Shown here: piece by piece, positions 47,091-59,821 of the stretch
Numbering within the stretch: the stretch's first letter is position 1
How the letters are laid out: the number at the start of each line of letters is the position of its first letter
Assembly (NCBI GenBank): GCA_965116925.1
Contig: OZ220744.1
Coordinates: forward strand, 3,520,001 to 3,584,000
DNA: 64,000 bases
Source of the DNA: Candidatus Poribacteria bacterium
GTDB taxonomy: Bacteria > Poribacteria > WGA-4E > PCPOR2b
Reading direction: 5' to 3'
Position numbers and translations under genes: made by a program
Notes under the pieces: model-generated
The model's database searches: none
What the model saw: the letters and a program-made list of their open reading frames with translations, nothing else
Told to the model about the DNA's origin: nothing

Positions 47091-47900
47091 CTACCCCAGA
47101 TCCTTCGCGTAAGGTTGCGGTTTCACAATCTCACGACTTTGAGAGAAATTAAGAACATTGTCCTTTTGTGGTCGGTGGGTGTAATACCACCAGAATCGAA
47201 TATAAAGTAGCATCCAAAAAATACGGAAAATCCGAAAAGGATTACGATACTTTGTTTCGCCGTGAATTCGAGGACGGTGAGTGATCACTATTTCCCCAAC
47301 TTTGTAACCTCGCAGATGGAGCATAGAAGTGAGACAATTGTGGTTTTTTGACCGTAACGGTAACAATGATTTGACCGCTTCTGATCGGAATATCTTAAGT
47401 GAGCAACTCGCGTCATGGACTGGATCACCCAAGAGGAGATAACGGAGAAGGTTGAATCCTTTTGAAATGAACCGTTTGCTTGCAGGATCATGGCGGTGTT
47501 TGCGCCAACCACAGATCGCATCGTATTTTTTCTCGAGAGCTTTGAGCAGTTTGGGAATATCTTGAGGATCGTTTTGTAAATCGCCATCCATACTGATGAT
47601 ATAGTCGCCGGTAGCATAGGAGAAACCGGCAGAAAAAGCGGGTGTCTGACCTAAGTTTTTTTTCAGCCGGATGATCGTTAAGTCACAAATCTTTTTTTCA
47701 GCACGCCGTAGCACCTCGTAAGTTTGATCAACACTTCCATCATCAACAAAAATGATTTCATAATCGTAGGGTTGAGTCTCAAGCACTGTATGAAGCCTTG
47801 TGGCAAGTGGCATGATGTTATCCTGTTCGTTATAGACAGGTATCACAACCGAAATCTTTTTCCGATATTTCTCTGAAATGGATTTGAGATCGATAACCAC
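47091..47900 (-). CDS. GT2 polyprenol-phosphate glycosyltransferase (ArnC/DPM1-like)
   Basis: SVVIPVYNE; VDDGS; MDGDLQNDP; GWRKHRHD. Confidence 0.9.
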   Translation of the reverse strand: MVIDLKSISEKYRKKISVVIPVYNEQDNIMPLATRLHTVLETQPYDYEIIFVDDGSVDQTYEVLRRAEKKICDLTIIRLKKNLGQTPAFSAGFSYATGDYIISMDGDLQNDPQDIPKLLKALEKKYDAICGWRKHRHDPASKRFISKGFNLLRYLLLGDPVHDASCSLKIFRSEAVKSLLPLRSKNHNCLTSMLHLRGYKVGEIVITHRPRIHGETKYRNPFRIFRIFWMLLYIRFWWYYTHRPQKDNVLNFSQSREIVKPQPYAKDLG

Positions 47901-47948
47901 TAGTTTTCTCCGCTGTCCATGACACTGTTTTTTAACGCTGCACTGTTT

Positions 47949-49022
47949 TCATTTGGTAAGGGACAACGGTTGCTGTCCCTTACTATAATTTGGAGGGCAA
48001 GTTTTTAATGTGATGGCCTTTAGGCTCGCGCCTCCTCTTATCGTCAGCAGGATGAAACCTAATAATCCCAACAGGATGGTCATAAACACCTGACAACAGT
48101 GTATAAAAAGTCCTATTGAGAGTGCGCTTCCTACCTCCATATCGGCAAACATGACCAAACTACCCGCCCAACTCCCCTCTATGACTCCAAAACCGCTCAA
48201 TGAAAACGGGAACCACGAGGCAATCATAACGATTGAAATGACAACCAACAATACGTTTAGCCTTTGATCGACGTTAAGAGTTGATAGTAAGAAGAGGTGG
48301 ATACTCACGTTGATACCATAAACGCAGAGAGAAAATGCGAGACCTTGCAACAACAGACGAAAACACCGAAACCGGTCAAGTTGAAGCGAGACTTCTCCTA
48401 ATTTATGACCGATGGAGTCCAGTAAAGATGTATGCTGCCAAGGACATATTTGAACAATATAAGTCCAGATGTGTTCTACACCTTTGGGAAGGACACTAAA
48501 AAGAACGCGATTTGCTGAAATCAGTATTCCAACAAGCACTAAAATGTTCAATACATAACCTGTTGATTGGACCCTCATTGTCAAGACCCCAAAGGTCCCA
48601 CCCAAGATAACAAATTGCAGGTCAAATAATCGTGCCTCAAACAGACTGCGGACTCCTTCGCTTACAGGGATTTTCAGGTATCGGCGCAGTAGTGCAACAT
48701 AGGAAAATTCACCGACCATCAGTGGAAGTGTACGGACAAAAAAGTTGTGACACAACGTAATTGGGAAAAGGACCGCCAAAGGCAGCTGCTTCCGGTCTAA
48801 GAGTATACGGAAACGCAAGGCACGAAAGATGTTCAGTAGGAAGAATAAGACAAGTAATAGGAAAAAGAGCCAAAGTGGAACGCTTTTAGCAAGTTGAAGA
48901 AAATGCACATAATCAATCTGTCGGACCAGATAGATGACCAAAATTGTAGAAACCCCAAGCCCCAACAGTGGTGAGATGAGACGATGTAACGGATATTTGT
49001 GAAGGAATGATTGTATCTGCAT
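47949..49022 (-). CDS. Lysylphosphatidylglycerol-synthase TM-domain (flippase-like) protein
   Basis: Multi-TM; RALRFRILL, LP..VGE, RLFD, GFGVIE. Confidence 0.78.
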   Translation of the reverse strand: MQIQSFLHKYPLHRLISPLLGLGVSTILVIYLVRQIDYVHFLQLAKSVPLWLFFLLLVLFFLLNIFRALRFRILLDRKQLPLAVLFPITLCHNFFVRTLPLMVGEFSYVALLRRYLKIPVSEGVRSLFEARLFDLQFVILGGTFGVLTMRVQSTGYVLNILVLVGILISANRVLFSVLPKGVEHIWTYIVQICPWQHTSLLDSIGHKLGEVSLQLDRFRCFRLLLQGLAFSLCVYGINVSIHLFLLSTLNVDQRLNVLLVVISIVMIASWFPFSLSGFGVIEGSWAGSLVMFADMEVGSALSIGLFIHCCQVFMTILLGLLGFILLTIRGGASLKAITLKTCPPNYSKGQQPLSLTK

Positions 49023-49051
49023 TGTGTCCCTCAGTCACCAATCGGTTTCAG

Positions 49052-58517: not shown

Positions 58518-58665
58518 CTTTTCCTTTTTCCCCCTATTTCTTCTATCGCTACGTCGCGACGTGAGGCTTGAAACCCTTGTGGTGCCTGAATCAAAGCAAA
58601 ATCCACAAATCCCCTATTTGCTTCTGCCAAGGGACATACAAGAACCTGACTCAAAATAGGGTTTT

Positions 58666-58769
58666 TCTCAAATATGAGATTACATCAACATTATAATATG
58701 CACAAACCCGCATGAACACAGGTTCCCACGCCTGTCCCAAATCTGGGATGCAAAATCCCAATATTGGGA
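58666..58769. promoter_or_regulatory. Putative enhancer sites TCYCA-N4-TGRGA, three copies
   Basis: 58666-58679, 58735-58748 and 58756-58769. Confidence 0.6.
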
Positions 58770-58780
58770 CGATTCTTAGA

Positions 58781-59821
58781 TTATAGTCCATATTTCGCTA
58801 ACCTCCGGTACAAGGTGCTTCGAGGTAAGCCCAGTAGGCGCGCTGCTTCGTCTTTATCCCCACCCGTCTGTTCCAGCACCTGACAGAGATATTGTCGTTC
58901 ATAACGTGCCAACGCCTCTTCCAACGGCAAGAGGGTGTCATCACTCATTTCTGTCTCATCGTCCAAGTGGGGTGCAAAATCAGTGGCATTCAACTTAGAT
59001 TGTTCCGTCAACAGAAACACGCGTTTGAGCACCGACTCGAGCTCACGCACGTTTCCGGGCCAAGGATATCCTTCCAATAAGGGATAAACATCCGTTTCAA
59101 GTCCAACAGATCGCTGAAATTCAATGATAAATCCTCCCAAGAAATAATCAGCAAGAGCGGAGATATCAGTACGTCGTTCCCGCAAGGGAGGCAGGTAAAC
59201 CGGGAGGGTGTTAAGCCGGTAAAATAGGTCTGACCTGAAGGCACCGTCACGTGCTGCTGTTTTCAAATCCCGATTGCTCGCAGCGATAATCCTCACATCA
59301 ACCAACGTTTCTGTCCCGCCCAGCGGTGAAACAGTTTTCATGTCAATGATTCGCAGCAACTTCGCCTGAAATTCCAACGGTATCTCCCCAATCTCATCCA
59401 AGAAGAGTGTCCCACCTTCAGCTTGTTGAACCGCGCCCTTCCGCGCCTCAGATGCCCCAGTGAACGCACCTTTGGTGTGGCCAAAGAGCTCGTTCTCAAT
59501 GAGTGTGTCAGGAAGTGCCGCGCAATTGACCGAAACGAACGATTGCCCTCGCCGTGCGCTCGCCTGATGAATCAACTGTGCGACGAGGTCTTTTCCGGTT
59601 CCTGTTTCTCCTTCAAGCAGAACCGTTTCATCCGTAGGACCAATTTTGCGAATCAATTCACGCACGCCCTGTATCGCAGCACTCTGCCCGACAAGCCGTA
59701 TAGCCTGAGAAGTATCTGGATCCGTATGAGGAAATGCTGTGTTCTTACGAGATTGCGTGGTTTGTTTCACTGGCTTCTTCAAATGTGATTTAACTGTAAC
59801 TGGTCGCCAATCAAAATACAC
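58781..59821 (-). CDS. sigma54-dependent activator lacking a sensory domain
   Basis: GETGTGKD; ELFGHTKGAFTGA; LFLDEIG; WPGNVREL; Fis-type HTH. Confidence 0.92.
   Translation of the reverse strand: MYFDWRPVTVKSHLKKPVKQTTQSRKNTAFPHTDPDTSQAIRLVGQSAAIQGVRELIRKIGPTDETVLLEGETGTGKDLVAQLIHQASARRGQSFVSVNCAALPDTLIENELFGHTKGAFTGASEARKGAVQQAEGGTLFLDEIGEIPLEFQAKLLRIIDMKTVSPLGGTETLVDVRIIAASNRDLKTAARDGAFRSDLFYRLNTLPVYLPPLRERRTDISALADYFLGGFIIEFQRSVGLETDVYPLLEGYPWPGNVRELESVLKRVFLLTEQSKLNATDFAPHLDDETEMSDDTLLPLEEALARYERQYLCQVLEQTGGDKDEAARLLGLPRSTLYRRLAKYGL

Follow-up and report, generated by a model that had tools for sequence, protein, structure and literature searches.

C39 peptidase domains usually cut double-glycine leaders in the cytoplasm, within ATP-binding cassette (ABC) exporters. 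The gene clusters of sublancin-type glycocins combine such a leader with disulfides, thiol-redox genes and a glycosyltransferase, and glycocins use an exporter of the PCAT family together with a cytoplasmic nucleotide-sugar transferase. A signal followed by a pro-piece, with the mature protein released by a protease outside the cytoplasm, is known from the type V pili of Bacteroidia and from disulfide-rich prepro-proteins of eukaryotes. Here we analyze a gene cassette in a stretch of 64,000 nucleotides (the window, to which all plain coordinates refer) from a Candidatus Poribacteria genome. In this cassette a Cys-rich precursor with a signal-like N-terminus and a double-glycine leader stands next to a predicted exported protease that combines a C39 domain with DUF1573. 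A first, sequence-only reading of the stretch had placed the maturation of the precursor outside the cytoplasm and had not recognized it as a described pathway.

The literature searched holds no account of such a cassette either, with subscription papers and supplements lying outside its coverage. The arrangement is not described in the accessible portions of PMC10233263, PMC3482391, PMC3223724 and PMC8939145, and the available part of a review on proteases of peptides that the ribosome makes and that are then modified (RiPPs) describes C39 only in PCATs (PMC10885120). For FapD of the Pseudomonas Fap amyloid system the sections at hand report that a Sec-exported C39 protease can be active in the periplasm, that its target is unclear and that the Fap proteins lack canonical leaders (PMC5557850). 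The window protease resembles FapD in its predicted export; in contrast to FapD, a canonical leader is found here on disulfide-rich cargo, and C39 is fused to Ig-like domains. Neither FapB/C amyloid subunits or repeats nor a FapF-like pore were recognized among the window open reading frames (ORFs).

Compared to PCAT/AMS exporters (ComA, PCAT1, LahT, CvaB) the cassette shares the Cys-His-Asp triad of C39, hydrophobic residues at leader positions -12/-7/-4, a leader end of GG, GA or GS, and the combination of a constant leader with a variable core. It differs by the absence of an ABC or transmembrane (TM) domain, by signal-like N-termini on protease and substrate with the leader behind the signal peptide, by DUF1573, LolA-like, redox and GT-C glycosyltransferase partners, and by a leader step that is optional. 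As there is no ABC domain and a signal precedes the leader, we do not regard it as a PCAT/AMS system. The clustering of a double-glycine-type leader, a disulfide-rich core, a glycosyltransferase and thiol-redox genes is reminiscent of glycocins; unlike these, the cassette has no PCAT, its sugar genes encode a membrane GT-C protein, a flippase-like protein and an ArnC/PgfS-like family 2 glycosyltransferase (GT2), and the cores span about 80-115 residues. With the type V pili and the eukaryotic prepro-proteins it has the order of signal and pro-piece in common, while proteases and folds are different ones and no sequence or fold link to them was found.

The window ORFs were scanned against family profiles, and signal peptides were called from hydropathy and visual inspection. 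The sequence-only reading had listed ten genes, and all of them lie on the minus strand at the places given, along with an exact sigma-54 promoter and the Gly44-Gly45 leader. It had overlooked an N-terminal LolA-like domain in the protease, which is followed by a C39 domain with intact triad (Cys362/His438/Asp454) and an Ig-like DUF1573 region with a CxC motif at residues 535-537; an ABC or TM domain was not found in this protein. Among solved structures, ComA, PCAT1 and a double-glycine-motif protease domain come nearest to the C39 domain, and the AlphaFold2 (AF2) model of a relative (P0126) consists of C39 followed by beta-sandwich domains. Matches of the window protease to the FapD and FilB families are weak (14 bits against a cut-off of 330 for the FapD model NF058616). 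Over 55 C39 domains the catalytic Cys is kept in 52, the His in 55 and the Asp in 46, with Glu in 7. A hydrophobic N-terminal segment, from which localization is predicted, occurs in 48 of 51 C39 proteins, and an internal TM segment in none of the 51.

The precursor consists of a hydrophobic N-terminus, a leader ending in G44-G45 and a core of 101 residues with nine Cys. Leu, Met, Ile, Gly and Gly occupy positions -12, -7, -4, -2 and -1, as in a double-glycine leader; according to the available text of one paper, -12, -7 and -4 are the positions recognized by LahT, and SunA is cleaved after GS (PMC6363468). G44 and G45 are invariant in 14 of 14 aligned precursors of type A, and the type-A cargoes keep eight Cys at approximately 25% identity. 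Among 44 leaders, which had been picked by such a pattern, 41 have Gly at -2 and nine have Thr or Gln at -1. The cores measure 79-116 residues, their net charge ranges from -13 to +15 (median 0, window core +11), and their Cys count is even in 43 out of 44, which lends support to the disulfide folding that had been proposed from the window alone. No family match above cut-off was obtained for any of 51 cargoes. For the window core AF2 predicts an all-beta structure (pLDDT 75, with one of five models being good) that includes a long beta-hairpin at residues 58-97; no clear match to a solved fold was found for it, with cystine knots, defensins and pilins among the disulfide-rich folds considered. 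A leader profile exceeds 20 bits on only two ORFs of the genome, both of them C39-adjacent precursors that were part of the training set.

In two loci (L147:4066-4779 and L148:4652-5365) YD/RHS-like repeats come after a signal-like segment and a double-glycine-type leader, and the neighboring C39 protein has no DUF1573; the leader tag may serve other cargo types. A leaderless Cys-rich secreted ORF (L132:1445-1870) shares its cassette with a leader-bearing one, next to an active C39.

The genome, which is 99% complete, has only two C39 domains and no C39-ABC exporter; both domains are part of DUF1573 proteins with predicted export, and each adjoins a precursor with signal, double-glycine leader and Cys-rich core. 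The second one (C1:3613631, 58% identical to that of a relative, P0079) belongs to a paralogous cassette that has its own precursor with six Cys, an activator, a UshA-like fusion (94% identical), a GspC-like gene and a separate LolA-like gene, and that lacks a glycosyltransferase. The cores of the two cassettes are unrelated (E=9.2). Across the phylum the C39-DUF1573 part was matched in 81 of 176 genomes at E<=1e-10, and loci (L numbers) were retrieved from 60 matching places and then from 40 more, a non-random choice by score and type. A leader-bearing Cys-rich cargo is present in 41 of the 54 distinct C39 loci of the first set (one cargo being interrupted by a stop). The sequence-only reading had named homologous peptidases without adjacent double-glycine precursors as the finding that would speak against it, and this is not what we observe.

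The leader pattern was found in 51 of 55 cargoes accompanied by an active C39 (with 13 type-A cargoes set aside), in one of 16 where the DUF1573 protein has no C39, and not in the single cargo next to a dead C39. This single case is L187, whose C39 has a Cys-to-Ser exchange and is nested in a clade of active enzymes with 100% support (quick tree of the DUF1573 region): the leader of its cargo is deleted, and the cargo of its sister L173 retains it. Loss of the catalytic Cys coincides with loss of the leader or the cargo in L187, L050 and L051. Recognition of the leader by C39 is thereby supported comparatively, and the signal-like N-termini on both proteins argue likewise for their predicted Sec export. 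A precursor, a LolA-like or similar-sized gene and an exported C39-DUF1573 gene recur together in Armatimonadota (L114), in Latescibacterota (L116, L117) and in metagenome contigs, where TPR and CBM9 proteins are the usual neighbors outside Poribacteria. In one metagenome cassette (L119) the C39-DUF1573 and glutaredoxin-DsbD genes lead directly to genes for PilM/PilN, a GspC-like protein and a secretin.

We regard the cassette as a recurrent and apparently undescribed unit for extracytoplasmic maturation. Comparative evidence gives good support to its regulation, to export and to the pairing of leader with protease. The genes, the promoter motif, the leader, the catalytic triad, the lack of an ABC domain and the gain and loss of the leader along with the protease are direct observations. 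It is reasonably probable, in our judgment, that Sec exports the precursor, that its leader tethers it to the C39-DUF1573 protein, that its disulfides form with the help of the UshA-like redox partner, and that cleavage after Gly45 sets it free. In such a sequence of events the activator, bound to tandem palindromes, would fire the sigma-54 promoter; Sec would translocate the precursor, and signal peptidase would leave a pro-piece of about 17 residues. The helix with Leu-12, Met-7 and Ile-4 would then dock on C39, with the core held at the DUF1573 (CxC) and LolA-like domains. Electrons to set four disulfides would come from the membrane-bound UshA-like/glutaredoxin/DsbD-type protein, or from a version with a four-haem cytochrome in other cassettes, and C39 would finally cut after Gly45 and free the 101-residue core.

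A number of observations weigh against this reading. The Gln six residues ahead of the catalytic Cys is present in only 4 of 54 domains; its role is doubted for LahT in the available text of PMC6363468. The window core is the one with an odd Cys count. Curated leader models (TIGR01847 and others) match 6 of 27 leader fragments, all below cut-off and the window's not among them. No leader-bearing cargo was found in the retrieved DNA of 13 of the 54 C39 loci, two of which have a Cys-to-Ser C39 and one a broken C39. The leader pattern was loosened after the sequences had been inspected, and a profile built from type-A leaders alone finds, at 5 bits or more, 28 of 55 cargoes versus 0 of 16. The 16 cassettes without C39 in which a cargo was scored fall into two clades, for which the starred branches of the quick tree force only one origin; the coupling of leader and protease thus amounts to about three events. 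Outside Poribacteria no UshA-like or FGE partner came to light, and a scan of 56 neighbors yielded no GT-C.

Some of these points could mean that C39 merely binds the leader as a docking tag and cuts rarely or never, the protein serving as a chaperone platform. The largely missing oxyanion Gln, Thr or Gln at -1 in nine of 44 leaders, and the maintenance of dead C39 domains in a separate family are in line with this. We consider it quite improbable, given that Cys (52/55) and His (55/55) are kept, that Gly-2 occurs in 41 of 44 leaders, and that loss of the catalytic Cys goes together with loss of leader or cargo in the three loci named above. The dead family itself comprises 13 loci (L172, L175-L186) without catalytic Cys, CxC or cargo, and stands after an extracytoplasmic-function-sigma-like fusion of about 1000 amino acids. 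An in-frame TGA lies near the CxC position in seven of eight matched loci, with Gly in the remaining one, and the frame is conserved beyond it; this TGA is a candidate selenocysteine codon.

Partner genes were counted within 8 kb in 81 cassettes, after 21 of 102 loci had been left out (2 overlaps, 3 without DUF1573, 13 of the dead-protease family and 3 fragmentary or atypical). Because of the short flanks the counts are lower bounds: UshA-like 62, FGE-like 52, any GT-C 48, DsbD-type block 35, activator 32, cytochrome c type 29, GT2 20 and GspC-like 11. We take leader and C39 together to be a facultative trimming step within a broader pathway of cargo, DUF1573, redox and GT-C components.

UshA 5'-nucleotidases bind metal by the motifs DxH, GD and GNHE. 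The UshA-like domain of the window has GN and GPQD at metal-motif positions, and the DxH, GD and GNHE set is not found; its match to NF041198 reaches 110 bits, below the cut-off of 275. The DsbD/CcdA label of the attached TM block is given by resemblance, without a family match above cut-off. Across the cassettes a DsbD-type block occurs in 35 of 81 and a cytochrome c type in 29, and on UshA-like domains a four-haem cytochrome can take the place of the glutaredoxin-DsbD block. This exchange, together with the CxC of DUF1573, points to thiol chemistry, and the UshA-like fusion is predicted to be the redox partner of the cassette. In formylglycine-generating enzymes (FGE) a catalytic Cys pair follows the RGG motif; the FGE-fold protein of the window has a lipobox-like Cys and lacks this pair, and it is likely a binding module. 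The coiled-coil protein has no family above cut-off and no Atlas match, with homologs in 19 of 62 loci. The DUF1573 protein also matches NF041425 (OS_HP2) below cut-off. In the accessible parts of PMC9312934 and PMC13188914 the DUF1573/OS_HP2 and UshA-like families appear among the selenoproteins, with UGC or CxU motifs; here they occur in Cys forms. As the table rows seen there give neither function nor gene context, a joint role of both in one cassette appears to be new.

A further aspect of the cassette is glycosylation from a lipid-linked sugar, which the sequence-only reading had considered possible. The GT-C gene begins 11 bp after the C39 gene, and a GT-C gene on the same strand, from one of several distinct subfamilies, accompanies 48 of the 81 cassettes; the same GT-C references find only four such genes in the 6.5 Mb genome. 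As several subfamilies occupy the slot near the protease, GT-C is a cassette member at the family level. LPG_synthase_TM is found in 5 of 81 cassettes, with loci reaching only about 5-7 kb downstream, and the best NCBIfam matches of GT2 are ArnC and PgfS, below cut-off. Same-strand genes extend past the limits that had been drawn, with a GHMP kinase and an NTP transferase downstream and an epimerase and a Zn-dehydrogenase upstream. A lipid-linked sugar is likely assembled and passed on by the products of the GT2, flippase-like and GT-C genes.

This part of the proposal thus gains from the recurrence of GT-C, whereas the cargo as its target is less clear. N-X-S/T sequons are not enriched in the cargoes against shuffles (24 versus 19.6 expected in loci with STT3-like proteins, 11 versus 9.0 with PMT and 24 versus 18.7 with none), which also counts against the reading as a whole. 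WWDYG is the N-glycosylation motif of STT3/PglB, and none of 16 STT3-like proteins in the cassettes of relatives has it. The sugar genes could instead act on lipids or other envelope proteins and leave the cargo unglycosylated. The same gene set stands at two other sites of the genome without C39 or DUF1573, and the second C39 cassette lacks a glycosyltransferase; on the other side, GT-C occurs in more than half of the cassettes and is rare genome-wide, and the sequon test is blind to O- or S-linked sites. We give this alternative a serious chance, though one below even. The cargo is still the most likely acceptor, unproven and with odds falling just short of even. The two C39-free sets (G000:C1:1894076-1904205 and C1:4663120-4679683) contain GT-C, LPG_synthase_TM, GT2 and GHMP genes. 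In each, GT-C follows a gene for a short secreted peptide with His and Cys, of a different family (three copies seen); a binding-protein-like gene fused to a helix-turn-helix (HTH) lies near the sets, and at a C39-free paralogous locus a dehydrogenase stands between GT2 and the GHMP kinase.

The exit of the product through the type II secretion system, which had been proposed on account of the GspC-like protein, is less well founded. The match to NF041515 amounts to 26.5 bits against a cut-off of 150, which does not place the protein in the family, and no gsp genes were found in the window cassette. The label itself gains some support, since a paralog with 26% identity directly precedes a secretin gene. 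That the folded core leaves by the type II channel, recruited by the GspC-like protein, agrees with the presence of this gene in both cassettes of the genome (76% identical) and with the paralog abutting the secretin. We hold it to be unlikely: the gene accompanies only 11 of 81 cassettes, which leaves type II export weakly founded, the match is far below cut-off, and two more GspC-like paralogs are orphans with no cassette near. Altogether three further paralogs (G000:C1:5223086, C1:4296069 and C1:6264707) were noted, the two orphans and the one before the secretin.

For sigma-54 control, also part of the earlier proposal, the comparison is favorable. Where an activator is adjacent, 25 of 27 cassettes carry the motif upstream of the UshA-like gene, compared with 3 of 22 where none is; the exact motif has 42 copies in the 6.47 Mb genome, and the background is 0.008 per 600 bp. 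The AAA domain of the activator starts at residue 43 (PF00158, with HTH_8), the family scan recognized no sensor domain in it, and 32 of the 81 cassettes have an activator at a distance of up to 8 kb. A -24/-12 motif, an AAA+ activator and upstream palindromes, as expected of a putative sigma-54 regulon, are found together. TCCCA-N4-TGGGA has 23 copies in the genome, and the window pair is the only tandem one, directly after the activator gene. The pair is kept in L078, L079 and L086, whose activators have the same HTH end; activators of related loci with a different HTH end are mostly followed by TGCCA/TGGCA repeats instead (both by visual reading). The tandem palindromes are likely the binding sites of the activator. 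Separately, positions 26000-38700 of the window show high GC skew and many plus-strand near-copies of a TGGCAC-N5-TTGC-like word; these are probably not promoters but codons of repeat proteins.

As to the product, a variable, disulfide-locked interaction protein that acts at or beyond the cell surface is most likely. The same maturation could yield the subunit of a surface filament or coat, for which the Gly45 cut would trigger assembly and chaperoning would fall to the array of DUF1573 domains and the LolA-like domain. GT-C partners and sigma-54 control fit surface structures. The stand-alone C39 families matched weakly, FapD and FilB, are both filament-linked, the core model has a long beta-hairpin, the ninth Cys of the window core could link subunits, and the L119 cassette continues into pilus-type genes and a secretin; even so, a filament subunit seems unlikely to us. 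A glycocin- or bacteriocin-like antimicrobial, kept inactive by its leader until the extracytoplasmic cut, would account for the leader with a hypervariable core, for tandem cargo genes (L066, L068, L069, L071, L073), for the charge of +11 of the window core and for the leader joined to YD-like repeats in L147, and the combination of disulfides and glycosyltransferase resembles glycocins (cf. PMC12457901). Set against this, the charge of the cores has a median of 0, cores of 79-116 residues were found, none of 51 cargoes has a bacteriocin family above cut-off, a recurrent immunity-like gene was not recognized among cassette neighbors, and 16 cassettes have leaderless cargoes. An antimicrobial is in our view decidedly unlikely.

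Table. Features of the cassette and its flanks in the window.
Feature	Positions	Strand	Basis
NAD-dependent epimerase and Zn-dehydrogenase, likely sugar-donor supply	59831..61840	-	family scan; upstream of activator
Sigma-54 activator (AAA+, Fis-type HTH)	58781..59821	-	PF00158 E=1e-65, PF02954
Two tandem TCCCA-N4-TGGGA palindromes, likely activator sites	58735..58769	-	motif scan, visual reading
Sigma-54 -24/-12 promoter	58503..58517	-	exact TGGCAC-N5-TTGC
UshA-like + glutaredoxin CQKC + DsbD/CcdA-like membrane block, predicted redox partner	56267..58327	-	NF041198, PF00462
Orphan GspC-like membrane protein	55575..56144	-	NF041515 E=5e-6
FGE-fold lipoprotein (FGE-sulfatase)	54726..55553	-	PF03781 E=4e-69
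Acidic coiled-coil protein, membrane-anchored (TM + coiled coil)	54006..54692	-	without family above cut-off
Precursor gene, whole	53317..53757	-	signal-like segment, leader and core
Precursor: predicted Sec signal peptide, about residues 1-28	53674..53757	-	sequence, type-A alignment
Precursor: double-glycine leader, residues 34-45	53623..53658	-	Leu-12, Met-7, Ile-4, Gly-2, Gly-1
Precursor: 101-residue hypervariable core	53317..53622	-	8 invariant Cys and one extra; predicted all-beta
LolA-like + C39 + DUF1573 protease, exported (predicted)	50869..53256	-	family scan; Cys362/His438/Asp454
GT-C glycosyltransferase (PMT_2 family)	49052..50857	-	PF13231 E=1.5e-12
LPG_synthase_TM, flippase-like membrane protein	47949..49022	-	PF03706
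GT2, ArnC/PgfS-like, likely polyprenyl-phosphate glycosyltransferase	47091..47900	-	PF00535
GHMP sugar kinase and NTP transferase, likely sugar-donor supply	44967..46992	-	family scan; 98 bp after GT2

Elsewhere in the window, a small secreted protein with TIG and dockerin-like parts is encoded at 42695-43231. Positions 61955-64000 hold a small toxin-antitoxin-like pair, labeled by resemblance; behind it stand a gene of the YhgA-like transposase family (PF04754) and then the beginning of another ORF like it.

The cassette would shift the processing of double-glycine leaders outside the cytoplasm and away from the ABC exporter, with a named substrate in contrast to FapD. Two orphan selenoprotein families, DUF1573 and UshA-like, gain a joint role that can be tested, and a leader-specific, disulfide-tolerant exported protease could become a tool for protein engineering. 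Dozens of secreted disulfide-rich mini-proteins without family or fold match come into view in an uncultured phylum. A wider proposal, doubtful at present, is that of a bacterial prepro-protein pathway spanning several phyla and running entirely outside the cytoplasm. Dedicated cassettes would fold a large family of hypervariable mini-proteins that are locked by disulfides and have a new fold, would glycosylate them from a lipid-linked sugar and would release them by proteolysis. If true, this pathway would parallel in bacteria the route by which eukaryotes secrete disulfide-rich ligands, and the DUF1573 and UshA-like selenoprotein families would be its folding machinery. In sponge-associated Poribacteria the products could then be surface signals or adhesins.

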